From an uncultured Gammaproteobacteria bacterium (GTDB taxonomy: Bacteria > Patescibacteriota > Microgenomatia > JAMCZE01), in contig CAZXMM010000002.1 in the NCBI GenBank assembly GCA_964641255.1, forward strand, positions 1-61,140: 61,140 nt of DNA, given 5' to 3'. The number at the start of each line of letters is the position of its first letter. The first letter of the stretch is position 1. Below, piece by piece: positions 8,937 through 56,806 of the stretch. Both the position numbers and the translations under genes were made by a program. The notes below the pieces were generated by a model. That model did no database searches. It was not told where the DNA came from and was given only the letters and a program-made list of their open reading frames with translations.

Positions 8937-8970
<34 letters not shown>

Positions 8971-10203: not shown

Positions 10204-10240
10204 CACCGCCCGTCAAGGCAGCAAAGTCGACAGCGCCTGA
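9698..10240 (+). CDS. LAGLIDADG homing endonuclease (single-motif type) encoded in 16S insertion 1
   Basis: LVGLVDGEGCF motif near the N-terminus; 180 aa. The ORF stop lies about 37 nt inside the downstream 16S exon. Confidence 0.75.
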   Translation: MYTFNEGMNSKLNPYYLVGLVDGEGCFCVTFNKHKNNRLLEVRLIFEIELRKDDREILERVRETLQCGNIYDLSYERYSKWKPHCKFKVSNIKDITQKVIPFFQDFPLQAKKKHSFKTFCEVAKLMLNKQHLTASGINEIRALREFSKRLAGCGKSARPVGRDRFLIPVTARQGSKVDSA

Positions 10241-25688: not shown

Positions 25689-25723
25689 CTGGCAATTATC
25701 CTCTTTGAGGGGGTATAATCAAG

Positions 25724-26539
25724 TTGATGTCCACCCAAACAGACACCGCCTGCCAACGGCTTGCCGACTACGGATTGCAGCCAGAGGAGGCGAAAATATA
25801 TCTTCATTTAGGTCAAAAAGGAGCACAAACTGCTCTCCAGATGAGCCGGAGCCTTCACCTGGCTAGGACGAAGGTGTACAGAATTCTGGACAAATTGATC
25901 ACTAAAAAGTTAGTTTCCGTCCAGCTGGGTGATATGGGAAAAAAGTTTGTGGCCAATTCCTATGAACAGCTAAAATTTTTGGTTACGGAAAAGGAAGTGG
26001 AAGCGGTCAGGTTGAGGGAAGACCTTCCCGAGACTTTTAAACAGTTAGCTACGCTGTGGGGAAAGGGGGAAGGAACGTCCAAAGTGCTCTATTACACCGG
26101 ATTGGCCGGACTGGAACAGGTAACCTGGAATTCACTGAATGCCAAAAAAGAGTTGCGGATTTATGAAATTGGTCAAGATATGAATACTTTTATTGCTCCA
26201 AAACTGTCTGAAAAAATTCGTCAAGAGTTGGCAGATCGGGGAATAACAACACTCCAGCTAAGTAATAGACAAAGAATTGAACCATTTACCAAAGTAACCA
26301 GGCTACCAAAAGAGTTTTGGCAAGTCCGCTATATCGACCCCCAGAAGTTAAACATGCAATTTGAATGTTTGATTTATAACAATGTTTTTTGTCTCTATCA
26401 ATTCTTTGGCGCAGATCAATTTTGCGTAGAAATTTACAACGACAAGTTAGCCGCGATGCAAAAACAGTTGTTTGATTTTATCTGGGATAATGCAGAGAAA
26501 ATGAAAATTTTGAATGAGTGGGGAGAAGCCAGAGTCTAA
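25724..26539 (+). CDS. TrmB-family transcriptional regulator
   Basis: N-terminal winged HTH LADYGLQPEEAKIYLHLGQKGAQTALQMSRSLHLARTKVYRILDKLITKKLV. Divergent from the transporter/dehydrogenase pair. ATG at 25727 is also possible. Confidence 0.7.
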   Translation: MMSTQTDTACQRLADYGLQPEEAKIYLHLGQKGAQTALQMSRSLHLARTKVYRILDKLITKKLVSVQLGDMGKKFVANSYEQLKFLVTEKEVEAVRLREDLPETFKQLATLWGKGEGTSKVLYYTGLAGLEQVTWNSLNAKKELRIYEIGQDMNTFIAPKLSEKIRQELADRGITTLQLSNRQRIEPFTKVTRLPKEFWQVRYIDPQKLNMQFECLIYNNVFCLYQFFGADQFCVEIYNDKLAAMQKQLFDFIWDNAEKMKILNEWGEARV

Positions 26540-31144: not shown

Positions 31145-31219
31145 GGGCCGTTAGCTCAGTGGTAGAGCACTTCATTTGCAATGAAGGGGTCAGGAGTCCG
31201 ACTCTCCTACGGTCCACCA
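31145..31219 (+). tRNA. tRNA-Ala: tRNA-Ala (UGC), CCA encoded
   Basis: GGGCCGT/ACGGTCC acceptor with G3:U70, anticodon arm CTTCA-TTTGCAA-TGAAG, T arm AGGAG-TCCGACT-CTCCT, ACCA end. Confidence 0.9.
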
Positions 31220-31267
31220 AGGGTTATCGGTTCTTAGGCACCAAAATCTGATAGTTGGTGATTAGGA

Positions 31268-31504
31268 ATGGGTAATCAAGAAAAGATTGACCGACTGCTC
31301 ACAGAGTATCAAAGACTGGTCTCAAGGCTCAATGACATCAATGACCAGATGAACGAGGTCGGGACAGACACAGAAGACATGATACCCGGGCACGACGAAG
31401 GAGGTGAATTTTACGCTAAATTCGTCAAATATCAATCGGTAATGGCGCAAATTACCTCAATCCGAGGTGAACTAAGAAAACTAGGGTACAAACGGGCACT
31501 TTAA
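31268..31504 (+). CDS. small hypothetical helical protein lying between tRNA-Ala and 23S
   Basis: 78-aa ORF with charged, coiled-coil-like composition (IDRLLTEYQRLVSRLNDINDQMNE). No convincing RBS. Confidence 0.35.
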   Translation: MGNQEKIDRLLTEYQRLVSRLNDINDQMNEVGTDTEDMIPGHDEGGEFYAKFVKYQSVMAQITSIRGELRKLGYKRAL

Positions 31505-31564
31505 AAAGTTATCAATAAGTAGGTTTAGGCGAATTGAAGCTAGTTATTGGTGACTTTACTCTCT

Positions 31565-31577
31565 TGCTCTTTAAAAA
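31565..31577 (+). promoter_or_regulatory. boxA antitermination-like element upstream of 23S
   Basis: TGCTCTTTAAAAA versus E. coli boxA TGCTCTTTAACAA (12 of 13). A second GCTCTTTAAAA lies at 35991-36001, between 23S and 5S. Confidence 0.5.
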
Positions 31578-31589
31578 GTGAATAGAAGG
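31573..31589 (+). other. 5' arm of the pre-23S processing stem
   Basis: AAAAAGTGAATAGAAGG is complementary to 35958-35974 (CCTTCTGTTCACTTTTT), with one G-U pair. Confidence 0.65.
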
Positions 31590-32123
31590 TAAATAAATAT
31601 ATGCCGCACTTAATTGTGTGGCATAGAGGAAGTATTTTTACAGCAAAAATTGATCTACTCATAATGCCAGTGGTGGATGCCTTGGCAGAAAGAACCGATG
31701 AAGGACGGTTATACGACGCCGATATGGTTGGGTTGCTGTCTATTAAGCATTATCCAGCCGTTTCCGAATGGAGCAATCCTCGTTGCGAAGAGCAGCGAAC
31801 CTACCTATGAATACATAGTATGTAGGGGGCAACCTCCTGAACTGAAACATCTAAGTAAGGAGAGGAATAAAAAATAATAATGATTCCCATAGTAGCGGCG
31901 AGCGAACTGGGAAGAGACTAAACCGATTCGCAAGAATCGGGGTTGCGGGACCACAACATAGTATTAGCTTTGTATAGAAGAATTCCCTGGAAAGGGGAGC
32001 CAAAGAGGGTGATAGCCCCGTACTCGAAATGTGAAGCTAGCTTAGTGGTATCCCAAGTATCACGGGGCACGACACCCTGTGAGAATTCGTGACGCCCAGC
32101 GTCATAAGTCTAAATATTCTTTC

Positions 32124-32170
<47 letters not shown>

Positions 32171-33635
32171 GGAAGGGGAGTGAAATAGTAACTGAAACCA
32201 TTGGCTAACAAACAACAGGAGCGCTCATTTCGCAAGGAATGGGGGTGACTGTGTGCCTATTGAAGAATGAACCGGTGAGTTGCTCAATGTCCGTTTTGTC
32301 TAAGCGATTCTGTCGCGAAGCGTAGTGAAAGCAAGGCTTAATTGGCCGAAATTCCACGGATATTGGCAGACCCGAAACCTGGTGAGCTAACCATGAGCAG
32401 GGCGAGCTCCAACGAAAGTTGGAAGGAGGCCCGAACTCGTTGTCGTTGCAATGACATGAGATGACTTGTGGTTAGGGGTTATATGCCTAACGAACCAGGA
32501 GATAGCTGGTTCTCCCCGAAATATATATAGGTATAGCGGTTGATGATCCTCTTTGGTGGTAGAGCACTGGATGGCCCCGGTAGCGCAAGCTGCTGTGGGC
32601 TAACCAAACTCCGAATGCCGAGGAGTCTATAGTCAACCAGTCAGAAGGCGACGGCTAAGCGCCGTCTTCTAAAGGGAAACAGCCCAGACTCAAAGCTAAG
32701 GTCCCTAATGAAATCTAAGTCTTAAGGATGTGAGACTTTTAAGACACCCAGGAGGTTGGCTCAGAAGCAGCCATCCTTTAAAGAAAGCGTAACAGCTCAC
32801 TGGAATAAAAGTTTCGCGCCGAAAATGATCGGGAATTAAGATTTCAACCGAAGCTTGAGATTTTGTATTTTATACGAAGTGGTAGGGGAGCGTTCTCTTC
32901 TAGAGTGAAGGTAACTCGTGAGGGTTGCTGGACGAAAGAGAAGTGAGAATGCCGGTATGAGTAGCGTTAAAATTATGTGAGAACCATAATCGCCGAAAGT
33001 CTAAGGTTTTCCATTCAACGTCAATCGGAATGGAGTGAGTCGGCCCTAAGCGTGACCCGATTGGGATAGCGCGATGGATAACAGGTTAGTATTCCTGTAC
33101 AAGGAGTAAGTCGTTATCAGCTAAGGAAGGACAGAGTGGAGATAGTCTAGTCCGCCCATCGAACATGGCGGATCTAAGTACTGAAATAGTGGTGAGTAGT
33201 AAATCTCTCACTATGTTTAATTGAGGTACGAATGCAACCCAAAGCAAAAACTAGGGGAGTAGGCAAGACTTGACTCTCGAGAAAAATTTCGTAGCGAGAC
33301 TTATTTTTTCCCGTACCAACAACCAACACAGGTGGACTGGTAGAGTATACCAAGGCGATCGGAAGAACTATGCTTAAGGAACTCGGCAAAGCAGCTCGGT
33401 GTAACCTAGGGAGATACCGTCCCCAATTTATTTGGGGTGCAACAACTGATTGCTATGCGACTGTTTAACTAAAACACAGGCCTCTGCAAAGCCGAAAGGC
33501 GACGTATAGGGGCTGACACCTGGCCAGTGCTAGTAGATTAAGACTGGTAGTGAAGACCGTAAGGTATCAGCTATTGGTTTAAGTCCTAGTGAACGCCAGC
33601 AGTAACTATAACTGTTCTAAGGTAGCGAAGTTCCT

Positions 33636-34657
33636 CGATAGGGGTCCCGCCGTTTGGCGGGAGAATCTAGCTATTTGCTGAAATCTCTGCCAGTATCTTG
33701 CACTACCTGACAAAGAAGAATAACGTTATTCTATGTCGGGTGAAAATGTGTCAAGTGACGCAGACAATCAGCAGGAAACACTGTATTACTTCTCCGGTTT
33801 TTTAACAGGAGAAGGGTCAATAAGCCTTATTAAAGCGACCAACAAAAAAGGAGGGACGGGGTTTTACTTTACTCCTGATATTACTGTCAGTAATGCAGAT
33901 TTGCATCTTCTTGAAGAGGTAAATCAAGTTATTGCCCAAAATAGAGGGATTATTACCGCGATTAAGGGAGGATATAACCTTTCATTTCGCGGTAAAGAAA
34001 AAGTAAAGCTTGTCCTTTCCTTCCTAAATAAGTATCCACCTATCGCGGGTGATCTTATAAGGGAGAAAATTCTTCTTTTAAAGCAAGCGATTGCTATTTT
34101 GTCCAAAAAGCAGAATAGCAATAAGCGGTTGAATAAAGAAGTAATTCGGATTGAAAAGTTGCGGTCTAGGCTTAAAGAAATTAAGAAAGATGCTAAACCA
34201 AGAAAGAATTTTCTTAATGTTCCTGCAAATCATAAGGAAATAGGATATTTTCTTGCTGGAATAGTTGACGCTGAAGGATCAATGGGATGGCGCAAGTCGG
34301 GTGACCGACTCCAACCATACTTTTGTGTTCTCATGCGGGAAGAAGCGATTATCAATTTATTACAAAAATATTTTGATTGTGGCCATATCTACTATCGCCC
34401 AGCAGAAAAATTATTTCACTTTGAGACAGGTAAAAGGGAAAATGTTTTTGAGCTTTGCTCATTCTTTTTACACAAATCTCCAGTGCGCCTTACTAAAAAT
34501 ATTGTGCGCATGCGAGACATACAGCGGATCCTCAACGACTATACGCTAGAACATCTGAGAAATTAGATGGAAGATATAGTCTGAACTTAATAGCGATATT
34601 AAGAGTCTTTGATGGAACTAGAAAGACATTCTGATATTAATCAGAATTAACACATTG
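33636..34657 (+). mobile_element. group I intron in 23S at the E. coli ~1917 site, carrying a LAGLIDADG ORF
   Basis: The exon ends ...GAAGTTCCT (T at 33635). The intron ends in G (34657) before TGTCGGGTAAG. GAAGATATAGTC motif at about 34568. Confidence 0.75.
33733..34566 (+). CDS. double-motif LAGLIDADG homing endonuclease
   Basis: FSGFLTGEGSI and FLAGIVDAEGSM motifs about 150 aa apart; 277 aa. Confidence 0.8.
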   Translation: MSGENVSSDADNQQETLYYFSGFLTGEGSISLIKATNKKGGTGFYFTPDITVSNADLHLLEEVNQVIAQNRGIITAIKGGYNLSFRGKEKVKLVLSFLNKYPPIAGDLIREKILLLKQAIAILSKKQNSNKRLNKEVIRIEKLRSRLKEIKKDAKPRKNFLNVPANHKEIGYFLAGIVDAEGSMGWRKSGDRLQPYFCVLMREEAIINLLQKYFDCGHIYYRPAEKLFHFETGKRENVFELCSFFLHKSPVRLTKNIVRMRDIQRILNDYTLEHLRN

Positions 34658-35121
34658 TGTCGGGTAAGTTCCGACCCGCACGAAAGGTAGAACGACATAG
34701 CGACTGTCTTGAGCATAGGTCCGGCGAAATTGAAATGGCTGTGAAGATGCGGCCTAGACATACTTGGACAAAAAGACCCCGTGGAGCTTTACTGCAACTT
34801 GGCATTGTTGAGCTTTTTTTCATTGTCTAGCAATAGGCGGGAGGCGCAAGCCACTAATGTAAGACCGCTCTTGAGAGATTGTGAGACTCACCTCGTTCCT
34901 GTCAAAAATTCAGGCGAGGGACATTGTCTGGTGGGCAGTTTAACTGGGGAGGTTGACTCCTAAATTGTAACGGAGTCGTACAAAGGTACGCTAGCCTCGG
35001 ATGGAAATCGAGGTGATAGGGCAAACCCAAAAGCGTGCTTGACTGCGAGACATACAAGTCGAGCAGAGACGAAAGTCGGTGTTAGTGATCTGGCTAATGC
35101 TTACTGGTAAGCATAGAGCTT

Positions 35122-35154
<33 letters not shown>

Positions 35155-35197
35155 GATCTCGCCCAAGCGTCCACAGCGACGGCGTGGTTTGGCACCT

Positions 35198-35534
35198 TAA
35201 ATAAGACATTGGGGTGATATGAAAGTAATTTCGTACCAATAGTTATCATAGAAAGTCTTTTTGAAATGTAAATTCAGCTAATATCGGTGAAATCCTGAGT
35301 TACCCATTGGACACTTGAGAGAGTGAGAGTAACGGATAATACCGAGGGAAGTCGACACAAACAGTGTTTGACCCCGTATCGACTGATTTCTTAGCAACTT
35401 GTTGTTAAGAATGAGATTGAGAATAAATCGATATCAACTCAATCACACGCTGACCCCTGACAATTATCAGGGTGAAGATATAGTCAGATCTCTTCAGAAA
35501 CGAAGAGTGCAAAATTCCATTTTTTGGAATATTG
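35198..35534 (+). mobile_element. ORF-less group I intron in 23S at the E. coli ~2500 site
   Basis: 337 nt between GGCACCT and CGATGTCGGCTCATC. 5' exon ends in T, intron ends in G. ATACCGAGGGAAGTC...GACCCCGTA and GAAGATATAGTC motifs are shared with 16S intron 2. Confidence 0.75.
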
Positions 35535-35957
35535 CGATGTCGGCTCATCCTATCCTGGGGCTGGAGAAGGTCCCAAGGGTCCGGCTGTTCGCCGGTTAAA
35601 AGGGTACGCGAGCTGGGTTCAGAGCGTCGTAAGACAGCTCGGACTCTATCCAGTATGTCCGTGGGAATTTTGAGGGGAGTTGAGCCTAGTACGAGAGGAC
35701 TGGCTTGAACGAATCCCTGGTGTGCCAGTTGTTCCGTCAGGAGCATCGCTGGGTAGCTATATTCGGATTGGATAAGCGCTGAAAGCATCTAAGTGCCAAG
35801 CCAACCCCAAGATAAGAATTCCATCCCCACCTCGGTGGGGTGAAGACCCCTGGTAGACTACCAGGTTGATAGGCGACGAGTGTAAGGCCAGTAATGGTTT
35901 CAGCTGAGTCGTACTAATTTGGTCGAATGTAGATTATTCTTTGCAGTTAAAAATACG

Positions 35958-35974
35958 CCTTCTGTTCACTTTTT
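35958..35974 (+). other. 3' arm of the pre-23S processing stem
   Basis: Reverse complement of 31573-31589. Confidence 0.65.
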
Positions 35975-36015
35975 ATTGAGTAAGTAGTAAGCTCTTTAAA
36001 AGTTTAATACGAATT

Positions 36016-36141
36016 GTTCTGTCGGTCTCTTGAGCGGTCTGGAACCACTCCTTCCCATTCCGAACAGGGATGTGAAACGGGCCAGCGTCGACAATACTTG
36101 ATGGGAAACTTTCTGGGAAGATAGATCGAGGCCGGTAGAAC
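36016..36141 (+). rRNA. rrf: 5S rRNA
   Basis: CCCATTCCGAACAGGGATGTGAAACGGGCCAGCG core. Termini GTTCTGTCGG/CCGGTAGAAC pair, extended by the perfect flanking complement TACGAATTGTTCT/AGAACAATTCGTA. Confidence 0.8.
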
Positions 36142-38605: not shown

Positions 38606-39625
38606 ATGATTTCTGTCATTATTCCCCACTACGATGATATTTCGCTCCTTCAGGAGCACTTGCCCAAACTAACCAAGTTGCTTTCTGCCTCAAAGTTGGA
38701 ATTTGAAGTTATTGTTAGTGATGATGCTAGTCCGGTAGGGGTAGTGGCTGAGCTTAGAAAACTCCAAAAAATTTATCCCGCTATTTCATTTATTCTTAAA
38801 GAACAAAACGAAGGTTTTGGGCCAAGTGTAAATCGGGCCGTGAAGCAGGCCCGAGGGGAGTTTGTTTTTGTGCTTAAAAACGACACTCTTCCGGCGAGAG
38901 CCGACTTCTTTGCTCTCCTGCTCAAACATTTTGCCGATCCGCAGGTCTTTGCCGTGTCAGCAGCTTCTCAAACCGAGGAGGATGGCCAGCCCGAGATTCG
39001 CGGGCAGGGTATCATCATTTTTTTCCGAGGGTTTTTCCTGCACTTTAGAACGAGAAGCGATTACGGGAAATGGTTACTGACTAGCCGGTCGACTCGTAGC
39101 CTGGGTGAAAAATTGAGCGCTAACACCCAATCTGAGGCCCCGGGTACTAAACACTCAGCCTGGGCGGATGGCGGATCGTCAGTCTTTAGGCGCGAAGTTT
39201 TTTTAAAACTCGGCGGCTTTAACCAAGTTTACGCCCCATTTTATTGGGAAGATACCGATCTAGGCTATTTAGCTTGGAAAGCGGGATACACGATCGACTT
39301 TGAACCCCAAGCCCTTCTAGTTCATGAGCACCGGCAGGGCACTATTGCGAGACACTATTCAGCCAAGGCGTTAAAGATCCTAAATATCCGTAACCAGTTT
39401 AATTTTGTGTGGAGTAACGGAGATGGGGAACACCTCCTGCAACATTTTTTTTGGTACCCCTACCACTTTTTAGTTGCCCTAAAGAATAGAAACTGGACCT
39501 ATTTTCAGGGACAGTTTGTCTCGATCTTGAAAATCCCAGGATTATTGGCGGTTCGAGCTCAGCGGAAAGGTCTAGTTAATAGATCAGATAGCGATGTTCT
39601 TAAAGAATTCGAGGTTATACAATAG
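38606..39625 (+). CDS. family 2 glycosyltransferase
   Basis: ISVIIPHYDD, VSDDASPVG, GFGPSVNRA and VLKNDT. ATG 38606 is preferred over the track TTG 38585. Confidence 0.75.
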   Translation: MISVIIPHYDDISLLQEHLPKLTKLLSASKLEFEVIVSDDASPVGVVAELRKLQKIYPAISFILKEQNEGFGPSVNRAVKQARGEFVFVLKNDTLPARADFFALLLKHFADPQVFAVSAASQTEEDGQPEIRGQGIIIFFRGFFLHFRTRSDYGKWLLTSRSTRSLGEKLSANTQSEAPGTKHSAWADGGSSVFRREVFLKLGGFNQVYAPFYWEDTDLGYLAWKAGYTIDFEPQALLVHEHRQGTIARHYSAKALKILNIRNQFNFVWSNGDGEHLLQHFFWYPYHFLVALKNRNWTYFQGQFVSILKIPGLLAVRAQRKGLVNRSDSDVLKEFEVIQ

Positions 39626-39753
39626 ATCTTGTTGGGGTTTTACACTCTTGTTCCAACTGGGTCAATTGGTTATAATCCTACCTACTACTAAGCAACTTAG
39701 GTAGGTCTTATGGGCTAAAAAGTCCGAAAGAATGAGAAAGGAAGTGTTCATGC

Positions 39754-40956
39754 TTGAAAAAATCATCAACTACATCAAAGCGCTCTTTAGAAAAAACTAA
39801 GGTTGGTTCTGAAGTAAAAAAAGTAAAAACTCCTAAAGAGAGCGTGGACGCTTTACCTACTCCCGTTGTAAAAAAAGCAGCTAAAAACGTGGCTGAAGCT
39901 ACCACGATGGAGGAGCTACTCGCTCAGGAAAACTACAGCTTTAAAGGTTTTAAAAAGGGTGACAGTGTCACTGGCAAGGTCGCGGCCATTACTGGTAAAC
40001 AGGTGCTACTTGATTTCGGCGGCAAAACTGAGGGGATCGTTGGCGAGAAAGAATGGGAGCAGATCAAAGACTTTGTCTCCACCCTAAAAATTGGCGATCC
40101 GATTGATGCTATTGTCATCTCGATCGAAAACGACCGGGGTCAGATGGTTGTGTCAATCCGTAAAGCAGGGAGCAAATACCGTTGGCAACACGCTGATGAG
40201 CTCCTCAAAAGTGGTGATCCGGTCAGTGTCCGGGGGACCGAAGTCAACAAGGGTGGGATTGTGGTGGATTTTGAAGGCTTAAAAGGCTTTGTTCCTGGCT
40301 CGCAATTTTCTTCTGAGTACCAAAATGATATTGGCAAAATGCTCGGTAAAGTCTTCTTAGCTAAAGTTATTGAGGTTGATCAGGCTCAAAACAGACTGAT
40401 TTTTTCCGAGAAAGCGGTGTCCGGAGCCAAGGATCTTGAGAAAAAGCTCACTGATGTTAAGGGTAAAGTTAATGTTGGGGCTAAATATTTAGGCAAAGTC
40501 AGCGCCATCATGCCTTATGGGATTTTTGTTAATCTTGATAACGGGGCTGATGGCCTGGTACACATTAGTGAGGTCTCTTGGCAAAAGGTGGAGAATTTAG
40601 CCGATTTGTTTAGCGTGGGCCAAGAGCTTGAGGTTCTAGTTTTGGGGATTTCCGATTCTGACGCCAAATTAAACTTGTCCCTCAAACAGTTACTACCCGA
40701 TCCCTGGGTCAAATTGGCTCAAAAATATTCTGCGGAGCAACAGGTTAAAGGTGAGGTGACCCGCCTGTCTCCTTACGGTGTGTTTGTCAGACTGGAGGAC
40801 GGCATTGAAGGGCTGATTCATATTTCCAAAGTTCCAAGTGAAGTCACTTACGAGGTGGGCCAGGACGTGAGTTGTACCATTGAGTCAATTGATGTGACCG
40901 CACATCGTATTTCCCTAGTCCCGGTGCTAACGGCCAAACCAGTAGATTATCGCTAG
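39754..40956 (+). CDS. rpsA: 30S ribosomal protein S1
   Basis: Four S1/OB repeats (GDSVTGKVAAITGKQVLLDFGGKTEGIV, GDPVSVRG..GGIVVDFEGLKGFVP, GLVHISEVSW, GLIHISKV). TTG start preceded by GAAAGGAAG. Confidence 0.85.
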   Translation: MKKSSTTSKRSLEKTKVGSEVKKVKTPKESVDALPTPVVKKAAKNVAEATTMEELLAQENYSFKGFKKGDSVTGKVAAITGKQVLLDFGGKTEGIVGEKEWEQIKDFVSTLKIGDPIDAIVISIENDRGQMVVSIRKAGSKYRWQHADELLKSGDPVSVRGTEVNKGGIVVDFEGLKGFVPGSQFSSEYQNDIGKMLGKVFLAKVIEVDQAQNRLIFSEKAVSGAKDLEKKLTDVKGKVNVGAKYLGKVSAIMPYGIFVNLDNGADGLVHISEVSWQKVENLADLFSVGQELEVLVLGISDSDAKLNLSLKQLLPDPWVKLAQKYSAEQQVKGEVTRLSPYGVFVRLEDGIEGLIHISKVPSEVTYEVGQDVSCTIESIDVTAHRISLVPVLTAKPVDYR

Positions 40957-40960
40957 TTTT

Positions 40961-42100
40961 ATGAAGCTCTCCGAGTCGGCTGCCCTGACTTTATTTGCTA
41001 ATCACGGCCTTGCGCACCCCAAGTTCATTGTTACCTACGCTTCCGGATTAGCTAGATTACCTAAAGGTGACCATTTTGTTCTAAAAGCTAACGGGGCGGT
41101 GGGGGGGAAAAAGAAACTAGGACTGGTAGAAATTGCCAAGCGGACAGAAGTGGGGAAGAAAGTCAAAGAGCTACTTGGGAAAAGCACGCCACAATTGCCG
41201 TTTGATTCAATTCTCGTTCAGGAATTTGTTCCCCATGACAAGGAATATTATTTGGCTCTAAAAGCGGTTCGTGAAGGCGTAGAAATCTATTTTTCAGAGC
41301 TGGGGGGCATAGAAATTGAATCCCATTGGGAGAAGGTAAGAAAGCTAGTTATAACTACAGACGAACTCATGGAAACGGGCTATTCGGAAGAAAAATTGGC
41401 AGATCTTATTCCCAATTCCTTCATTCAGGATTTTACGAAAGACGCCCTGCTATTTTTTACTGCGGAGGACGCGACCTATTTGGAAATTAATCCGATTGTG
41501 GTGACCAAAGACTATCAGGCAATACCACTGGGCGTGGTTCTTGTTCTTGATGAAGCTGCCAAGTTTCGCCATCCCAATTGGCCCAGTGAGTCGGTTAGTG
41601 GGACTAAGTCGCCGAGAGAAAAAAGAGTTGCCGAGATTGACGCCCAAATTAAGGGCTCAATAAAACTGGTCGAAGTGCCAGGAGGCGGGGACACCGCTAT
41701 TCTTCCTGGTGGAGCAGGAGCCGCGCTATTTTTGTGTGATGCCATTGTAAAAAACGGCTTAAAACTGGCCAATTATGCCGAGTTTTCTGGCAATCCCCCA
41801 GATTTTGCGGTGGCGGAACTGACCAGACAAGTCTGTGCCCTGCCTGGGATTAAAAATTTAGTGATTGGTTCGGGGATTGCCAATTTCACTTCGGTGGTAG
41901 GTAATGTGCGGGGTATTATTGAAGGGTTTAAGTCTTCTCCACAAGCCAAAAAACTCAATATTGTGATCAGGCGGTGTGGTCCCGGGGAAGACGAAGCGAT
42001 TGAACTAATGAAGAGCTTTGTCAAAGAGTCGGGCATGAAGATCCAAGTATTTGGGAGAGAAACAGGGATGACAACTATTGTGGCTAAGCTAAATGATTAA
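40961..42100 (+). CDS. ATP-grasp subunit, ATP-citrate lyase B / citryl-CoA synthetase large subunit / SucC-like
   Basis: 379 aa with a SucC-like N-terminus (KLSESAALTLFANHGLAHPKF) and ATP-grasp layout. 8-bp overlap with the next gene. Confidence 0.65.
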   Translation: MKLSESAALTLFANHGLAHPKFIVTYASGLARLPKGDHFVLKANGAVGGKKKLGLVEIAKRTEVGKKVKELLGKSTPQLPFDSILVQEFVPHDKEYYLALKAVREGVEIYFSELGGIEIESHWEKVRKLVITTDELMETGYSEEKLADLIPNSFIQDFTKDALLFFTAEDATYLEINPIVVTKDYQAIPLGVVLVLDEAAKFRHPNWPSESVSGTKSPREKRVAEIDAQIKGSIKLVEVPGGGDTAILPGGAGAALFLCDAIVKNGLKLANYAEFSGNPPDFAVAELTRQVCALPGIKNLVIGSGIANFTSVVGNVRGIIEGFKSSPQAKKLNIVIRRCGPGEDEAIELMKSFVKESGMKIQVFGRETGMTTIVAKLND

Positions 42101-43028
42101 TTCTTTTCGCACCATTCTTATCGGGGGAGACTCTGCTAAAAAGGCGGCTAGCCGGATTGGGGAGTTTGACTATCTTTGCGATTTGCCGTTTTCTGTGTCG
42201 GCTTTTATCAATCCGTCCGCTTCGGCTAGATTTCAACTCGTCAGTTCTGGTGACACCTGGCACGATGTTCCCACCTATCACACCTTAGCCGAAGCGGTCA
42301 AAAATGATCCGAACAGTGATACAGTAAGTATTCATTTTAACGCGAAGTATGTCCTTTTCTGGGTACAAGAAGTGATCAAGTTTAATCAGCTAAAAAATGT
42401 AGTTATTTTGGCCGAAGACGTCCCTGAAAGAGATGCCAGAGAGATTGTGGCACTGCAAAAAAAATATGGCCTTAACATTCTTGGCCCCTCGTCACTCGGA
42501 ATGATCATTCCTGGCAAAGGGCGCGTGGGCGAGATTGGGGGAGATTTTAAAAATCTGCAGCTATGTAGACTGGATAAACCCGGTCCGGTCGGTCTAATCA
42601 CCAAATCCGGAGGGATGTCTGGAGAACTAATGTGGGTAATTTCTCAGCACACCCCAGGTCTATCCGGTATTTTCCAAATTGGCGGCGACGCTTTTCCTGC
42701 TACAGATTTTGTCCACTGGTTAGACTTTTTTACTCGCGAGCCAACCACTAAGGTGGTGGTGTTATCAGGCGAAGCTGGGGGAGACTTAGAAGAACGTGCG
42801 GCAGCGTGGATTAAACTACATAAACCCCGCTATAAAGTCGTTGCGGTGATTTCTGGTAGATTTTTGGAACAAATGCCCAAAGGACAAAAATTTGGCCATG
42901 CCGGGGCGATGCAAGAAGAGTCGGGTTTTGGCTCAGCAGCCCATAAAGTCAAAGTCTTAAAAGAAGCGGGAGTGGAAGTGGTAGAATTTGAGGAGTTAGC
43001 AAAGACCCTAGAAAATTCGAACCTGTGA
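42093..43028 (+). CDS. CoA-ligase alpha-type subunit, ATP-citrate lyase A N-terminal / citryl-CoA synthetase small subunit-like
   Basis: GPSSLGMIIPG, ITKSGGMSGEL, QIGGDAFPATDF and the phosphohistidine loop FGHAGA. An insert IGGDFKNLQLCRLDKPG resembles ACLY rather than SucD. Confidence 0.7.
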   Translation: MINSFRTILIGGDSAKKAASRIGEFDYLCDLPFSVSAFINPSASARFQLVSSGDTWHDVPTYHTLAEAVKNDPNSDTVSIHFNAKYVLFWVQEVIKFNQLKNVVILAEDVPERDAREIVALQKKYGLNILGPSSLGMIIPGKGRVGEIGGDFKNLQLCRLDKPGPVGLITKSGGMSGELMWVISQHTPGLSGIFQIGGDAFPATDFVHWLDFFTREPTTKVVVLSGEAGGDLEERAAAWIKLHKPRYKVVAVISGRFLEQMPKGQKFGHAGAMQEESGFGSAAHKVKVLKEAGVEVVEFEELAKTLENSNL

Positions 43029-43273
43029 TTAAAAGATATTTGATTATCGGGATAGGCGCCTATTTGGCGATTGGGGCTGGGGTCATGGCACTAACGATAG
43101 CCAAAATTTACCCCGGGATACCGCTTAGTTGTCCGGAAGTAAACATTTACGATTACCCGTGTATAGATTTTTTTCCCTTTTATCTTGAGGAGGCCAAAAG
43201 TGCCCCATTCTGGTTTAGCGGAGTGCTTCTTTGGCCATACTATCTACTGATCCTAGTGTTGTATTGGAGATGA
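43025..43273 (+). CDS. small two-TM membrane protein embedded in the citrate-cleavage operon
   Basis: 82-aa ORF. Its GTG start overlaps the upstream stop (GTGA) and its stop overlaps the downstream ATG (ATGA at 43270-43273). Confidence 0.45.
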   Translation: MIKRYLIIGIGAYLAIGAGVMALTIAKIYPGIPLSCPEVNIYDYPCIDFFPFYLEEAKSAPFWFSGVLLWPYYLLILVLYWR

Positions 43274-44049
43274 CTATGAAAGATCTTCCAAAACCAGTTG
43301 AACCCCTGATTGTTTCCTCAGTTTCTCAGCGAAATCAGAACGACGAGATTTCTTATCGTGGTCATGCAGTGTCTGAATTATTAAGAGATAAACGCACGAT
43401 TGAAGAAGTTGTCTGGCTCCTTTGGACTGGAAAATTGCCATCTAAAATTGAGGCAGAATTAGCTCGAACTATTATTGTCATGGTCGCTGATCATTCTCCG
43501 GGTGTGGCTGGTGCCTATGCCACCATTTTGGCAGCCTCTGCGGGGCTGTATATGCCTCAGGCGGTGGCAGCGGGCGTACAAATGATTGGGCCACGGTTTG
43601 GGGGAGCTGCAGGCATGGCTGCCGAAGCTTTTAAGCAGGCGGTAGACCATGATTTTACTGTTGAGCAATTTGAAGATTGGGCAAAAAAAACAAAGGGCTG
43701 GCATACTTTTCCAGGCATTGGTCACAAAATTTTTTCTCGTTCCCGTCCCGATAGTCGGGTTGCTGAACTTAAAACATTTGCAAAAAAAAATTTGAAGCAA
43801 ACAGCTCATTTAGATTTTGCGGTCAAACTGGAGGAAGCACTTCTCAAAAAAAATGAAAAACTTATTCTCAATGTTGACGGTGCAATTGGTGCAATTCTTA
43901 TGGATGTAGGGTTCCCTTTGGAAGGTGTTGATGGCTTCTTTATTCTTTCCCGAACAATCGGCCTCATTGCCCACTACATTGATCAGAAAGAGCGGGGGAC
44001 GGGCCTTATTCGCTTACCAGAAGAGCTAGTCATGTATAAACAAAAATAG
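43270..44049 (+). CDS. citryl-CoA lyase-like protein (citrate-synthase fold, ACLY C-terminal module-like)
   Basis: VADHSPGVAGA, IGPRFGGA, PGIGHKIFS, LILNVDGAIGA and IGLIAHYIDQ. About 260 aa, too short for a full citrate synthase. ATG 43270 is preferred over the track start 43231. Confidence 0.7.
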   Translation: MTMKDLPKPVEPLIVSSVSQRNQNDEISYRGHAVSELLRDKRTIEEVVWLLWTGKLPSKIEAELARTIIVMVADHSPGVAGAYATILAASAGLYMPQAVAAGVQMIGPRFGGAAGMAAEAFKQAVDHDFTVEQFEDWAKKTKGWHTFPGIGHKIFSRSRPDSRVAELKTFAKKNLKQTAHLDFAVKLEEALLKKNEKLILNVDGAIGAILMDVGFPLEGVDGFFILSRTIGLIAHYIDQKERGTGLIRLPEELVMYKQK

Positions 44050-44050
44050 A

Positions 44051-44620
44051 GTGAATTTTGCTGAGTGGTTAATTAGGGTTGAAGTCGAAAAACCTGAGGC
44101 GAGAAGTGTCACAGGAGCCCTTCTTGGTGTGGCTTTGCCCGTTTCCCACCTCTTTGACCCTCTTGCTACGGTAGTGTTCGATCCAAAAGTCTTAGCCAAG
44201 CCATTTCGACCCTTCGTCGTCCACGGACTGGCTGGTGTTCCTGAGACGGCAGTAAAGCTGGCTATTGGGGTCATTAACAGTGCAATATCCGTAGGGATAG
44301 GAGCCTTGTCACTGGCGGCCATCGAGAACGTCAGTGGTATTAAGTTTTTACCCGCTGAGTATCTCGCTGTCGCTTATCCAACCCTCGAGACTGTTGGTTG
44401 GATTACCGATCACTGTGCCCCGTTTTTGGGGGAAGCGCTCAAACATTTAGGTCTGCCGGTGAATGACTATTATCTAGCGACCATGAATTTAGCCTTAGCC
44501 CGTGAGTCAGTGAGAGCTATTGGTTTGATCTTTGCCAACGAAAATGATCTCTCTCGTCGCGATTCTGAAGTAGTAAGTTCCGATTATCAACAAGAACCGC
44601 ATCAGAGCCAGTGGAGTTAG
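44051..44620 (+). CDS. hypothetical protein
   Basis: 189-aa ORF with a GTG start 1 nt after the upstream stop. Confidence 0.4.
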   Translation: MNFAEWLIRVEVEKPEARSVTGALLGVALPVSHLFDPLATVVFDPKVLAKPFRPFVVHGLAGVPETAVKLAIGVINSAISVGIGALSLAAIENVSGIKFLPAEYLAVAYPTLETVGWITDHCAPFLGEALKHLGLPVNDYYLATMNLALARESVRAIGLIFANENDLSRRDSEVVSSDYQQEPHQSQWS

Positions 44621-44748
44621 TAGACCAGTTAAGGCTCCATTCTCTAGCTTGTGGGGTTGGCTACTACTAGACTTGAAGATTGACCCATTTGCTATAATGG
44701 CCTATATGAACGGGCCTGACCAGTTTATGGAAGGAAGGCTTTGCCACT

Positions 44749-45132
44749 ATGTTAAAGGGTGAGCTTGGATGCACTCAGCCCAGGTTATTTCGGGGAGCTC
44801 TTATTGACTTTCCTGGAAATTCTGGGGCGGGTTTAGACTTGGGGTACAGTGTTTCTACTCGGGGGTTGCCCTCAGCAAAGGGTGTCTTGGTTACTGTTAA
44901 GTTGGCTCAATTACATCCCAATACCTCTCCCCCCGCTCCAGCCAATAATTCGAGGTTTACGGTTGAGAGTTTTTTTGTTGGCTGTAGGGTCATTGATGGG
45001 GGCGGGGAAAGTCGGTTTCTTCTGGCTGATAGACCCAGAGGTCAAGTATTTGAATTTGCTGGCAGACCTGTTTTAGTGACTCCTACCTGGGGTAATGAAG
45101 TTAGTGTTAATAATAAGGTGATTTTAAGATAA
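44749..45132 (+). CDS. hypothetical protein
   Basis: 127-aa ORF with no motif. Confidence 0.3.
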   Translation: MLKGELGCTQPRLFRGALIDFPGNSGAGLDLGYSVSTRGLPSAKGVLVTVKLAQLHPNTSPPAPANNSRFTVESFFVGCRVIDGGGESRFLLADRPRGQVFEFAGRPVLVTPTWGNEVSVNNKVILR

Positions 45133-45179
45133 AACCTAAGCCAGATTATTTACTCTGAAAATTGGGGGAGGTGAGAGAT

Positions 45180-45338
45180 GTGTCAAAAGAAAAACCTAGT
45201 TTGATAGTAAGGGCTAAAAATACTAAGGAGGCCTTTATTAATCTAAAAAAACAAATTTTTCCCAGTAAACCAGAAAAAGTCAAACCTGATGAGAAATGGA
45301 GTGAAGTTCCGCCTAAAAAAGACCAAGGCTCAAACTAA
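45180..45338 (+). CDS. possible 52-aa lysine-rich small protein
   Basis: GTG preceded by GGGGGAGGTGA at 5-nt spacing. Followed by a long hairpin GCGGTGCCACCTA...TGGGTGGCGCCGC (about 45346-45390), flanked by A and T runs between convergent genes. Confidence 0.25.
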   Translation: MSKEKPSLIVRAKNTKEAFINLKKQIFPSKPEKVKPDEKWSEVPPKKDQGSN

Positions 45339-45390
45339 CAAAAATCGCGGTGCCACCTATGGGAGTAAAACACTGTGGGTGGCGCCGCTT

Positions 45391-47397
45391 TTAGAGTGTC
45401 TGATTGAAGTATTTGGCAAAGCAGGCAAAGTCGACCATATTGATGGCGCCGTCGCCGTTACAATCTTGGCAGCTGGGATTATCTTTATCAGGACAGGCTG
45501 CGACTTTACAAGTAGCGTTTGGCCTTATACAACCGTCCCTGTTGGTACCGACTCCAATGACTTTTTGACAGGCACTATTTACGCAGGCCAGATAAAATTC
45601 TTCAGTGGTGTCGCCCCCGTTGTTATTGCCACTTCCTTCCTCAATACAGGTGGCTCCAGCGACTTTGTTAGCACAAGTGGGGCTATCAGCTGTAGCCGTG
45701 GTGGAGAGCTGACAGGTATTATTGGTGCCGCAAACTAAAAAGCCACTAGCAGGAGGAGGGGTTGTGTCACAACTCGCACCCTGGGTTTTACCGACACAGA
45801 GTGGATCGTCAGTAGTGGCAGTGGTGGACGGTTGACAAGCATTGCTAGAACAAATTAGCCTGGCAGTGGGTGGGGTACAAGTAGCTCCTGGAGTTTGGCA
45901 CTCGTCAGTACCAATTCCTGAGACTACCGTACAGGCATTATTTAAACAGGCTTTATGACTGGGGCTACTACTACAAGTACTGCCGGCGACGGCACAGGAG
46001 TCGGTGCCGGGGCCGTTGACCACCGTACAACTATTATTGCGACATTCTTTGTGGGTGGTACTTGAACCACAGCTTTGACCTATCGCTGTACACTGATTGC
46101 TACCAGCGCCCGCCACCCGCACACAGGCATCATTAATACACTCGTTATGACTGTCGGTTAGGCCACAAGTGCTGCCGCTGGGAGCACACTGGTCAGCTCC
46201 AGCTCCATCAACTTCGGTGCAAGCATTATTCACGCACTCGTTATGCTTGTTGGCATTACCGCAGGCGCTCCCTGGGGTAGCACATTGACTACTACCAGTG
46301 CCGGGGACACTAACACAGGCGTCGCTGACACAAATATTGTGAGAATTAGCCCCACAAGAGATACCAACTGGAGTACACTGGTCGGTTCCAGCTCCGGCCA
46401 CTTGGGTACAGGCATTATTGACACATTCATTATGTTTGGTACTGTCGCCGCAGCTTTCTCCGACTTCTTCACAGCTGTCAGTTCCCGGTCCCGCTACTTC
46501 AGTACAGGCGTTACTGACACAGACAGTATGGCTAGTTTGGGTAGGGTCAATAACTTCGATGGTGGCAGAACACTTTTCCGATCTTTGGTTGCCGTCTTTG
46601 ACCACGCCGCTAATTTCAAAGACGCCGGCGGTAGTAAAGGTGTGGGTCAAATTTTTCTTGGCCCCCGAATATTCCTGGCCCTCAATCGTAAAGATGTATT
46701 CCAGATTTTTAGCTTTAGTGGCCGGGATACCCACCATGGTGGCGGTAGCACTCAGGTTGGGCAAATTACCAAAACTGGGGTTGACTGTCAGTTCGTCGCA
46801 GACTGGTTCGGGAGCGCTGCTGGCCGCCCGGATGACATAGTTGGCGTTTTTAATTACGGCCGCGTCCATGACGTTCTCTCCCTTTTTAGTCGTTTTTAGG
46901 AAAGATTGGGTTTGGTCAACAGTAACATTGGTAGCGTTAGTCGTGGTCGCTTTTCCGCGCAGGACAAAAGTAAAAAGAACTCCGCCCGCAAAAGTTTGTT
47001 TTTTGGCTAACTTGGTTTGAACGATGATGGTGCCGGTAGCGTTAGCTTCTTTAGCAGTCGATTTTTTAACAATCTTGCCGAGTTTTTTAGCGTCGATTTT
47101 TGGTTCTCCCACCACTTTGAGATAAGTCTTGTCAAATTTGATGACGATTTTTGTGCTATTAACCGGTTTTTTAGTCGACAGCAGGACACTGACGTTAATA
47201 TTTTTCTTCGCGGCTGTATTGGAGGTTTTGGGAGTAATCTCCACGACTGTATCGGCAGCCGCTTGGGAGAAGAAAGAAATCCGGTCTTTAAAGAAAAAGG
47301 TGGTGCCAACGATGGCAATGGCTATAACGGGAAGGATAGTGACTATTAAGAGAAGTTTAAGATTGCGAAAAAGATTCACTCTCTCAGTATTTCGCAA
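45391..47397 (-). CDS. secreted modular protein: cohesin-like domain, PKD-like domain, ~10 four-Cys modules, dockerin-like C-terminus
   Basis: N-terminal anchor LLLIVTILPVIAIAIVG. Cohesin-like VVEITPKTS...VLFTFVLRGKA. PKD-like CDELTVNPSFG...THTFTTAGVFEISGVVKDGN. Tandem HNECVNNACTQVAGAGTDQCTPVGISCG-type units (+ strand about 45470-46533). The end reads CQDCNGDGAINMVDFACFAKYF. Confidence 0.75.
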   Translation of the reverse strand: MRNTERVNLFRNLKLLLIVTILPVIAIAIVGTTFFFKDRISFFSQAAADTVVEITPKTSNTAAKKNINVSVLLSTKKPVNSTKIVIKFDKTYLKVVGEPKIDAKKLGKIVKKSTAKEANATGTIIVQTKLAKKQTFAGGVLFTFVLRGKATTTNATNVTVDQTQSFLKTTKKGENVMDAAVIKNANYVIRAASSAPEPVCDELTVNPSFGNLPNLSATATMVGIPATKAKNLEYIFTIEGQEYSGAKKNLTHTFTTAGVFEISGVVKDGNQRSEKCSATIEVIDPTQTSHTVCVSNACTEVAGPGTDSCEEVGESCGDSTKHNECVNNACTQVAGAGTDQCTPVGISCGANSHNICVSDACVSVPGTGSSQCATPGSACGNANKHNECVNNACTEVDGAGADQCAPSGSTCGLTDSHNECINDACVRVAGAGSNQCTAIGQSCGSSTTHKECRNNSCTVVNGPGTDSCAVAGSTCSSSPSHKACLNNACTVVSGIGTDECQTPGATCTPPTARLICSSNACQPSTTATTDDPLCVGKTQGASCDTTPPPASGFLVCGTNNTCQLSTTATADSPTCANKVAGATCIEEGSGNNNGGDTTEEFYLACVNSACQKVIGVGTNRDGCIRPNATCKVAACPDKDNPSCQDCNGDGAINMVDFACFAKYFNQTL

Positions 47398-55330: not shown

Positions 55331-56806
55331 ATGTTTAGTGTGAAGCCTAGACGTTTGGTTGTTTTAGGGGCGCTTTTTGCTTTAGCTGTTTTGCTTGTAG
55401 TACTACTACTAACCGTCTTGCGGGTGCAAAACCGAGCGGCCACTATTACTCAACCCCGGGCTGACTGGATTGAGTGTAAAGATCACATCACGAGTGATGG
55501 TAAGGGCGACGAAAAACCGTTTTGTTTTAGTAGCAAATTAATAAAGTGTGTCGGGACTCCCGATCATGTGACCATGTATGTCCATGATCCTTGTCTCAAC
55601 GTGGGGTGCGATCCTGCTACTAATAAGTGTAATGCTAGCGCTCCCGTCTGTCCAGCTGATAAGGGTTATGGGGTTTGTCGTCCGGGGCGCTTTTGTGTGG
55701 AGCCCGGAGATATTGGTATCCCTGGTTGCTATTTGGATTATTGTGGTAAATCTCAGCCCGAACATACTATTTTAGCTGGCGGGGCTTGCTACTATGATGA
55801 CGAATGTGTTGCGGGTTTAGGCTGTAGTACTGCTGGTAATGGTACTTGTAATCAGGGTGTTTGTGAAGAAGATGCCCCTCCACCCCCTGGAGGAAATAAT
55901 GGTGGCGGTGGCGGTGGCGGGGGCGGAGGAAGTGGCACTACTACTACCACTACCACTACTCCTCCACCAGCCACTCCCGGTGACCCCCGGGGGTGTAATA
56001 GTAGTAGTCCGAATGATGTCTGGGCGTGCTACCAAAAGACTGGCAGTTGCAGTGGCAGCTGGGCCTGCCATGATAGTCCTGGATCCAGTGCCTGTCCCGA
56101 AGCCTGTGGTGGACTCTCTAGCTGTAGTAAGGATAAGGACTGTGAGAGTGGGGAAATGTGTAAGGACGGCAAATGTACTGGTAACTCCTGTAAGAGTGAC
56201 AGTGATTGTAGTGGAAATAAAGCCTGTATTGATGATACCTGTTACCGTCGGGGTCAAACCCACCTGGCCTGTATAGAAAATGCCTGTACCCGGGTAGTAG
56301 GTAAAGGTGACCATCAAGACGGTTGTACCAGTGATAGTGCCTCCTGTGTCACTCCCGTCACTACTCATCTCACCTGTGGAGTGGATAACACCTGTAGACG
56401 GGTGGAAGGTAGCGGGACTAGTACCTGTTTGTCAGAAGGGAGCGTCTGTGTCCAGAGAGCTACTTATCTGACTTGCAGGAATAGTACGTGTACTAGAGTC
56501 ATTGGCACTGGCACTAGTACCTGTGTGTCAGAGAATAGTGCCTGTGGGACTCCCACTGCTACCCACCTCACCTGTGGTACTGATAAGACGTGTAAACGGG
56601 TAGCTGGTAGTGGCACTAGCACCTGTAGTTCAGAAGGTAGTCCCTGTGGTGGAGTCAGTGAGTGTTGGGGAAATGAAGGAGTGGATGGCCAGTGCTACGA
56701 TGTCAATGGTGACTCTGTTATCAATATCCTGGACTTCTCCTGCGTCAGTAACCTCTGGTTAGCGGATATCACTCCCACTAGTAGTCCTAAGTGTGGGGGG
56801 AGGTAG
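55331..56806 (+). CDS. secreted Cys-rich modular protein: Gly/Thr linker, four-Cys modules, dockerin-like C-terminus
   Basis: N-terminal anchor LVVLGALFALAVLLVVLLLTVL. GGNNGGGGGGGGGSGTTTTTTTTPPP linker. THLTCGVDNTCRRVEGSGTSTCLSEGSVC-type units x4 (56258-56660). The end reads CYDVNGDSVINILDFSCVSNLW. Confidence 0.75.
   Translation: MFSVKPRRLVVLGALFALAVLLVVLLLTVLRVQNRAATITQPRADWIECKDHITSDGKGDEKPFCFSSKLIKCVGTPDHVTMYVHDPCLNVGCDPATNKCNASAPVCPADKGYGVCRPGRFCVEPGDIGIPGCYLDYCGKSQPEHTILAGGACYYDDECVAGLGCSTAGNGTCNQGVCEEDAPPPPGGNNGGGGGGGGGGSGTTTTTTTTPPPATPGDPRGCNSSSPNDVWACYQKTGSCSGSWACHDSPGSSACPEACGGLSSCSKDKDCESGEMCKDGKCTGNSCKSDSDCSGNKACIDDTCYRRGQTHLACIENACTRVVGKGDHQDGCTSDSASCVTPVTTHLTCGVDNTCRRVEGSGTSTCLSEGSVCVQRATYLTCRNSTCTRVIGTGTSTCVSENSACGTPTATHLTCGTDKTCKRVAGSGTSTCSSEGSPCGGVSECWGNEGVDGQCYDVNGDSVINILDFSCVSNLWLADITPTSSPKCGGR

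Follow-up and report, generated by a model that had tools for sequence, protein, structure and literature searches.

A putative Chlorobium-type ATP-citrate lyase with a split aclA gene in a Gottesmanbacteria-like bacterium

ATP-citrate lyase (ACL) is reportedly a fusion enzyme, in which a tetrameric citryl-CoA lyase (CCL) core is covalently tied to modules resembling succinyl-CoA synthetase (SCS), the unfused pair of citryl-CoA synthetase (CCS) and CCL of the Aquificae being the ancestral state according to a view attributed to Verschueren et al. in 2019. Here we describe a locus in a stretch of 61,140 nucleotides (contig CAZXMM010000002.1; this whole stretch is called the window below) that very probably encodes a functional ACL (EC 2.3.3.8) of the heteromeric Chlorobium/Nitrospira type, whose aclA gene has been split at the linker between its two modules, with an open reading frame (ORF) of 82 amino acids as a lineage-specific insert. 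Within the bacterial Candidate Phyla Radiation (CPR), a two-subunit, archaeal-like aclAB is known from Gracilibacterium, for which cleavage of scavenged citrate to acetyl-CoA and oxaloacetate was proposed (PMC6851277), an enrichment of aclAB was found in metagenome-assembled genomes of Saccharimonadia (PMC12577380), and a preprint has noted that CCS/CCL-like sequences in CPR are misannotated as SCS or citrate synthase. The preliminary description of our locus had presented a citrate-cleaving module in a CPR-like genome as metabolically unexpected; the CPR-like nature of the host stands, and the module is not unprecedented, given the two published reports and the UniRef name "ATP citrate synthase" already carried by a homologue. 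What is new is thus an architectural variant of a known enzyme, the presence of ACL in CPR and a proposed citrate-scavenging role being already known. We found no three-gene ACL, no fission of aclA and no ACL in Gottesmanbacteria, Collierbacteria or Microgenomates CPR3 in a literature search that left subscription journals mostly outside, and this absence is no proof of novelty.

The four genes concerned, with the basis of each assignment in brackets, are the following:

40961..42100, + strand: aclB (gene 1), ACL beta subunit with ATP-grasp and citrate-binding domains, 379 aa (Pfam, PDB match)
42093..43028, + strand: aclA-N (gene 2), CoA-binding and CoA-ligase domains with the phosphohistidine loop, 311 aa (PDB match, tree)
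43025..43273, + strand: orphan ORF (gene 3), 82 aa, GTG start, between the two halves of aclA (ORF, overlaps, coding score)
43276..44049, + strand: aclA-C (gene 4), stand-alone CCL module, 257 aa (PDB match, AlphaFold2 model)

Four overlapping ORFs had been described on this strand, and all four are present, the start of the last being corrected to 43276. Three starts are possible for gene 4 (TTG at 43231, ATG at 43270 and ATG at 43276), and the third, giving 257 aa, is the most likely one because the resulting N-terminus, MKDLPKPVEP, is common to all members of the clade and a GGAG lies 6 nt upstream. Stop and start codons overlap in ATGATTAA between genes 1 and 2, in GTGA between genes 2 and 3 and, with the ATG at 43270, in ATGA between genes 3 and 4. 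Positions 40800-44200 recur with 0 differences in contigs from two activated-sludge runs sequenced separately, at depths of 40x and 61x, which shows that the interrupted arrangement does not come from assembly or from a frameshift; an artefact of this kind is ruled out by complete reading frames that are identical in two independent assemblies.

The identity of the three enzyme parts is best seen in searches of each part against solved structures (PDB), from which all the following bit scores are taken:

Gene 1: Chlorobium ACL 6hxj, 237 (6hxj_A, AclB, E 5e-69); human/Methanosaeta ACL, 116-130; SCS, 71; Hydrogenobacter CCS, 54 (6hxq_B)
Gene 2: Chlorobium ACL, 247 (6hxj_B, AclA residues 9-302, E 3e-72); human/Methanosaeta ACL, 125-132; SCS, 118; Hydrogenobacter CCS, 95 (6hxq_A)
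Gene 4: Chlorobium ACL, 222 (6hxj_B, AclA residues 340-597, E 1e-64); human/Methanosaeta ACL, 129-146; citrate synthase, 66; Hydrogenobacter CCL, 85 (6hxp_A)

Chlorobium ACL comes top for all three parts, with 2-4 times the scores of Hydrogenobacter CCS/CCL, and chance does not account for similarities of this size. Expressed as E-values, the contrast for gene 1 is between 5e-69 for AclB, 9e-19 for SCS-beta and 2e-13 for the CCS large subunit, and for gene 2 between 3e-72 for AclA, about 1e-29 to 6e-33 for SCS-alpha and 5e-26 for the CCS small subunit; gene 4 matches the Chlorobium CCL core 6qcl at 8e-65, Hydrogenobacter CCL at 4e-23 and citrate synthases at 1e-17 or weaker. Two Pfam domains are found in gene 1, Citrate_bind with 128.9 bits (cut-off 26.8; 2e-37) and Citrate_synth_N with 85.2 bits (cut-off 83; 5.7e-24). 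The AlphaFold2 (AF2) model of gene 4 (pLDDT 69) has its best Foldseek matches, over the full length and with a TM of 0.66, in the Chlorobium CCL module, followed by the human and Methanosaeta modules, Hydrogenobacter CCL (rank 40) and then citrate synthases.

A set of SucCD genes followed by a citrate or 2-methylcitrate synthase was considered and ruled out, both by profile scores below the cut-offs and by partial coverage of Citrate_synt. The NCBIfam profiles sucCoAbeta and sucCoAalpha score 94 and 150 against cut-offs of 376 and 353, the best citrate synthase profile 77 against 421, and of the 357 positions of Pfam Citrate_synt gene 4 spans only 164-355, whereas a complete citrate synthase, with two domains, is about 360-430 aa long. 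The initial proposal of an ATP-dependent citrate-cleaving system with ACL-like motifs, rather than SucCD plus citrate synthase, is therefore borne out by PDB scores, Pfam domains and profile cut-offs together. That proposal had left the choice between a split CCS/CCL-type system and a disassembled ACL: the second half of it holds and the first does not, since the scores are 2-4 times higher for ACL and both trees described below place the proteins with ACL at bootstrap 100. Profile assignment among aclAB, CCS/CCL and sucCD, which had been suggested as a check, gave an answer in part, all SucC, SucD, citrate synthase and CCL models being far below cut-off, with ACL-specific Pfam domains present in gene 1 and no support from NCBIfam.

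The catalytic residues were compared in human ACLY numbering, read off printed alignments and, for gene 4, transferred via the Nomurabacteria protein L009 to the structure 6hxh. The residues listed for the centre of citryl-CoA synthesis (E599, S663-G665 and H760; PMC11365397) are all conserved at the aligned positions of gene 2, as E108, S172-G174 and H269, the last lying in the GHAGA phosphohistidine loop. In gene 4, H900, H975 and D1026 correspond to H73, H150 and D201, invariant in a 21-sequence family alignment, and the titles of PDB entries according to which D1026A and D541A mutants trap citryl-CoA are in line with the role of the Asp. Gene 1 keeps S308/G309, N346/T348 and R379 of the citrate site, the roles of N346, T348 and R379 being those in the human citrate-complex structures. 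The His and Asp residues whose loss had been named as a possible objection are thus intact in genes 2 and 4, and every motif quoted at the outset was found again: FGHAGA at residues 267-272, TKSGGMSGE at 170-178 and IGGDFKNLQLCRLDKPG at 148-164 of gene 2, and ADHSPGVAGA, GPRFGGA, GIGHKIF, LILNVDG and AHYIDQ in gene 4. The glycine motifs vary within the clade. At human G281-G283 the window and L003 have G-A-G, human ACLY and the other relatives compared (L001, L005, L006) G-G-G; at residues 172-174 of gene 2 the window has S-G-G, as in human S663-G665, and four relatives (L001, L003, L005, L006) S-G-T. This variation may bear on substrate handling.

The alpha subunit, a single polypeptide in canonical ACL, is here encoded by two ORFs with the 82-aa ORF between them. 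Gene 2 stops just past the final helix of its CoA-ligase domain, and the start of gene 4 coincides with that of the CCL module as crystallised; the AclA linker, some 35-40 residues long, is gone. When the 250-bp gap was searched with blastx and tblastx only the ends of the flanking genes were matched, and the idea that the gap is what is left of an AclA linker, or of the cargo found in relatives, was rejected, as it has no similarity to linkers or to the related loci.

The split is shared by many relatives. Database searches gave two sets of proteins, of which about 34 consist of the CCL module alone (236-276 aa, 55-73% identity) and about 25 of AclA-N alone (303-342 aa, 58-70% identity), and we read eleven related loci (L001/2/7, L003/4, L005, L006, L008, L013 and L016-L019). 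The three ACL genes occur in all of these (51-73% identity), mostly between rpsA and radA, except that the L008 contig is without aclA-N, and the start of the relatives' CCL is conserved as MK[DS]LPKPVEP. For each of the three genes the pairwise proportion of non-synonymous differences (pN) is 0.16-0.29 and that of synonymous differences (pS) is saturated at 0.75-0.9, and a low pN with a saturated pS points to strong purifying selection while the lineages diverged over a long time. Judged by this pattern of substitution, the three ACL genes are functional.

The history of the split was studied with neighbour-joining (distance) trees with 100 bootstraps, the AclA-N tree being rooted on SCS. The AclA-N and the CCL-module trees both show ACL as monophyletic (bootstrap 100), and genes 2 and 4 fall inside the ACL clade and not with SCS or citrate synthase, which for these two genes speaks against the phylogenetic objection that had been anticipated. 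In the AclA-N tree the split clade has a bootstrap of 100 (96 when L013 is included) and is sister to the fused ACLs of Chlorobium and Nitrospira with a bootstrap of 86. A second split lineage, which consists of L012 ("Candidatus Microgenomates bacterium CPR3") and, on a contig of 965 kb, the Collierbacteria-like L011, joins a fused CPR AclA (L010) with a bootstrap of 100, on the branch that carries L009, also fused, and human ACLY; in the CCL-module tree this second lineage has a bootstrap of 90. Two independent fissions in Microgenomates, at the same linker but in different types of ACL, would be more parsimonious than three or more fusions, because fused forms flank both split clades.

The second lineage has features of its own. 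L011 (3539-6795) and L012 (3931-6795) carry aclB, aclA-N and a CCL of 264 aa on the human/Methanosaeta branch of ACL, flanked by yidC, Band_7 and groES/EL, and their nearest relative, L010, has a fused AclA. In the AclA-N tree a further group branches off between archaeal SCS, used as outgroup, and the ACL clade: "CoA-binding proteins" of about 294 aa from Candidatus Daviesbacteria (P0182, P0184, P0185 and P0188), which are SCS-alpha-like and about 41% identical to gene 2; these could be CCS-small-subunit-like proteins or an unusual SCS.

What lies between the two halves of aclA differs from locus to locus. The 82-aa ORF has hydrophobic segments at residues 7-25 and 61-79, and its AF2 model, computed from the single sequence and of modest confidence (pLDDT 68), has helices at 2-28, 49-59 and 61-81 forming a helix-loop-helix hairpin, in agreement with the two-transmembrane protein that had been suspected. 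In codon usage the ORF scores higher than the other five frames and than all out-of-frame windows, yet within the lowest 3% of true coding windows, and a frame this long would stay open by chance with a probability of 0.008. Its probable product is a small membrane peptide with two helices. Searches for homologues gave only the self-match, both in 5.8 billion clusters and in 1.84 billion representatives (index-free HMMER); neither a counterpart in any related locus nor a Pfam, NCBIfam or PHROG family was found. The micro-ORF is therefore real and absent from described ACL systems, as had been said, and it is also not a conserved part of the present ACL, given the lack of homologues and the variability of the junction, for which the observable loci read as follows:

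Window: 82-aa orphan ORF
L003, L016, L017: none, the genes overlap
L013: none, 188-nt gap
L006: NUDIX
L019: Maf
L018: DUF805 membrane protein
L001: 240-aa protein without known family, and NYN
L005: three ORFs, small or without family, one of them weakly T4SS-pilin-like (116 aa)

Cargo is thus present between aclA-N and the CCL gene in 6/10 loci and absent in 4/10, and it is unrelated between loci except for the 240-aa protein of L001 and a 237-aa protein of L005 (34% identity, E 3e-11, without known family). In L008 a PMT_2-like membrane protein stands directly upstream of the CCL gene, and the aclB/aclA-N junction carries cargo in four loci, with up to three genes (L018). Across both junctions (L001, L005, L006, L008, L017, L018 and L019) the cargo also includes DUF218 and adh_short. 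Within the split ACL operon, both junctions between the genes are hot spots for insertion, and we conclude from these comparisons of sequence that the 82-aa ORF would be a lineage-specific orphan insert in an insertion-tolerant operon, without a role in ACL catalysis.

Two further genes adjoin the locus:

39754..40956, + strand: rpsA, ribosomal protein S1 (Pfam S1, 2e-49, and NCBIfam S1 models)
44051..44620, + strand: orphan ORF, 189 aa, GTG start, 1 nt past the CCL stop codon (coding score)

The rpsA gene is co-directional with aclB and 4 nt upstream of it, the spacer being TTTT, and this linkage of rpsA and ACL is kept within the clade (L001, L003, L005, L014, L016 and L019). Since the ACL genes follow rpsA directly and their stop and start codons overlap, all are probably co-transcribed and translationally coupled. 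A scan of 39500-45400 for promoter and terminator consensus sites found them no more frequent than in shuffled sequence, and it does not delimit the transcription unit. The 189-aa ORF has a coding score of +0.23 per codon, in the range of real genes, with zero family matches in Pfam, NCBIfam and PHROG and zero tblastn matches in the related loci; it is possibly the last gene of the unit, a lineage-specific tail gene.

Our view of how the system would work follows from these assignments. AclB, with its ATP-grasp and its citrate site, and AclA-N, with its CoA site and H269, would act jointly: ATP would phosphorylate the histidine, and from the phosphohistidine the two proteins would form citryl-phosphate and then citryl-CoA, which the free CCL protein, using H73, H150 and D201, would split into acetyl-CoA and oxaloacetate. 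The mode of operation would thus resemble the two-enzyme CCS plus CCL, with a descent from ACL. These steps for AclB, AclA-N and CCL are inferred by homology, and the most likely role is the conversion of imported or scavenged citrate to acetyl-CoA and oxaloacetate in a fermentative scavenger or symbiont.

Several observations weigh against this interpretation and should be kept in view. The direction of the flux and the source of the citrate are what we infer, and neither a citrate transporter nor any other enzyme of the tricarboxylic acid (TCA) cycle was seen in the window, which is only part of the genome; none of the RNA-seq runs searched for the locus contains it. No NCBIfam model reached its curated cut-off for any of the three parts. 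Among the residues checked there is a sole change, from Gly to Ala at human G282, residues 251-253 of gene 1 reading G-A-G. The trees were built on a limited set of references that left out the CCS/CCL of the Aquificae, compared through PDB scores only, and the CCL-module tree gives a bootstrap of only 26 for the sister relationship with Chlorobium/Nitrospira ACL, its deeper branching being unresolved, so that the conclusion on fission rests mainly on the AclA-N tree. Finally, the synteny of the window is kept in the closest named relative, a Gottesmanbacteria locus (L014/L015, the locus of OGG19250.1, on 22 contigs), where ACL is decaying (L014 4720-6964, and L015): aclB is frameshifted, with residues 1-247 in one frame and 256-379 in another, and a deletion has removed the C-terminus of aclA-N and all of the CCL gene except its last 17 codons. 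At least one sister lineage can hence do without ACL, a caution against giving the enzyme a central place in the metabolism of the group.

Other explanations deserve to be set beside a functional, secondarily split ACL. One concerns direction only and leaves the gene identities as they are: CCL would condense acetyl-CoA and oxaloacetate, and AclB/AclA-N would yield citrate and ATP by substrate-level phosphorylation, in a fermentative CPR bacterium. We regard this as unlikely. Desulfobacter postgatei is reported to use its ACL in this citrate-forming, ATP-yielding direction (Moeller et al. 1987), and this speaks for it. So do the failure to see other TCA genes in the window and the closeness of the ACL reaction to equilibrium (quoted free energy about -8 kJ/mol; PMC13147460); on the other side, the sequence carries no sign of direction, neither a source of oxaloacetate nor a citrate exporter was seen, and the published inference for CPR is citrate cleavage (PMC6851277). 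That the locus is instead an Aquificae-type two-subunit CCS with CCL, retained in the ancestral unfused state, seems to us scarcely credible. Hydrogenobacter CCS/CCL scores far below ACL for every part and comes at rank 40 in the fold search, gene 1 has the Citrate_bind domain of ACL, and the clade is nested among fused ACLs, with fused sisters on both branches, so that two fissions stand against at least three fusions. This has to be set against the separate CCL polypeptide, which is as in CCS/CCL, the CCS/CCL-like sequences reported in CPR by the preprint, and the label "citryl-CoA lyase" of the best NCBIfam models for gene 4; these models give at most 125 bits against cut-offs of 193-409, and the CCL models themselves are below cut-off (125 vs 212 bits).

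A locus in decay, with an aclA recently disrupted by an insertion or a nonsense mutation and genes on their way to loss, could be suspected from the reductive nature of CPR genomes and from the closest named relative, with its frameshifted aclB and deleted CCL gene. Such a locus is very improbable here: the split, with conserved start and end, is found across relatives at 51-73% identity, all three genes are under purifying selection, the catalytic residues are intact and the frames are complete in two assemblies. We hold it just as improbable that the 82-aa peptide is a functional accessory of ACL, for example a membrane tether beside a citrate transporter. The stop/start overlaps on both sides do suggest co-translation with the ACL parts, and small membrane proteins stand at the same junction in L018 (DUF805) and L005 (the 116-aa, weakly T4SS-pilin-like protein); but these proteins are not homologous to one another, the peptide has no homologue in the databases searched, the junction is empty in 4/10 loci, and elsewhere it holds soluble, unrelated enzymes (NUDIX, Maf, NYN).

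As to the host, whose taxonomy was taken from named homologues, gene 2 comes closest among these to OGG19250.1 from Candidatus Gottesmanbacteria (63% identity), a protein named "ATP citrate synthase" in UniRef, which supports a CPR-like, Gottesmanbacteria-like (Microgenomates) organism. That the genome is CPR-like had been noticed at once, and this agrees with a 16S gene unlinked from an intron-bearing 23S gene, with LAGLIDADG ORFs and with Gottesmanbacteria as the nearest named relative. The 16S gene (8028-9460, 1433 nt, full-length model match) lies about 22 kb from the tRNA-Ala/23S/5S cluster (31145-36137), and the 23S gene (31651-35938, 4288 nt) contains a LAGLIDADG ORF at 33733-34566 and a group I intron at 35211-35507. 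Behind the 16S gene there are a match to a group II intron domain (9641-9719) and LAGLIDADG ORFs at 9698-10237 and 10450-10974. Four of the related sequences (L006, L007, L008 and L010) are titled "uncultured Gammaproteobacteria bacterium", yet their gene content and synteny are those of the Gottesmanbacteria-like window, and the Gammaproteobacteria labels are probably wrong. Downstream of the decayed ACL in L014/L015 there are AbiEii and YafQ/YoeB toxin genes.

Many proteins of the window are without family. On the minus strand at 45391-47397 there is a protein of 668 aa, predicted to be secreted or exposed at the surface, with about 8 tandem Cys-rich repeats of about 33 aa (pattern C.NNAC..V.G.G.D.C...G..CG) and a dockerin-like C-terminus (CNGDGAINMVDF), without a Pfam match; an ORF of 491 aa at 55331-56806 has a weak dockerin match. 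A small cluster at 23425-26539 comprises, on the minus strand, an aldehyde dehydrogenase (456 aa; Aldedh in Pfam, 2e-135) and a transporter of the EamA family, beside a TrmB-type regulator; apart from this cluster and the ACL genes, no clear module of metabolism or transport was seen in the window.

A conserved and selected split ACL that would have arisen twice in one group amounts to a natural experiment on the need for the tether, be it for assembly, for the hand-over of substrate or for regulation, and it suggests that the transition between fused and unfused forms can run backwards. There is also a practical consequence: annotation pipelines that expect a two-subunit aclAB will miscall such genes as "succinate-CoA ligase alpha", "citrate synthase" or "hypothetical", and these miscalls would undercount the citrate-cleaving capacity of CPR and distort surveys that use markers of the reductive TCA cycle. 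A bolder picture can be drawn, which we think rather unlikely as a whole, in which Microgenomates have undone the ACL fusion twice, in a Chlorobium-type ACL and in one of human/archaeal type, the tether is dispensable, the modules work as a reversible couple, possibly citrate-forming and ATP-yielding as part of fermentative substrate-level phosphorylation, and the junction serves as a neutral landing pad for genes, the 82-aa ORF among them.

Among described systems, the ACL of Chlorobium limicola (AclB/AclA, 6hxj; CCL core 6hxn/6hxo/6qcl) is the nearest: it is the best match for all parts, with about 46% identity in the CCL module, and it shares the catalytic residues and the domain order, ATP-grasp with citrate-binding, CoA-binding with the His loop, and CCL. 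It differs in that its AclA is one chain of 617 aa, where the window has 311 aa and 257 aa, without the linker and with an 82-aa ORF between, and Chlorobium is an autotroph using the reductive TCA cycle, whereas the host of the window is a CPR bacterium. The CPR systems of Gracilibacterium and Saccharimonadia have in common with ours an ACL in a small genome without a TCA cycle, but they are two-subunit aclAB, whereas aclA is split in the window and in L011/L012, and the type found in the window is not the archaeal-like one. Fused AclA is known in CPR as well (Nomurabacteria MCB9834978.1, that is L009, 588 aa; L010, 594 aa), with the aclB-aclA order and the catalytic motifs of our locus, but in a canonical fused form and on the human/Methanosaeta branch of ACL. 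Finally, CcsAB and Ccl of Hydrogenobacter thermophilus (6hxq, 6hxp) are three polypeptides with a separate lyase, as here, and presumably react in the same two steps, with citryl-CoA either free or channelled, but they are far more distant (54, 95 and 85 bits against 237, 247 and 222 for Chlorobium ACL), and the likeness of our locus to CCS/CCL is most likely one of organisation, reached through secondary fission, and not of descent.

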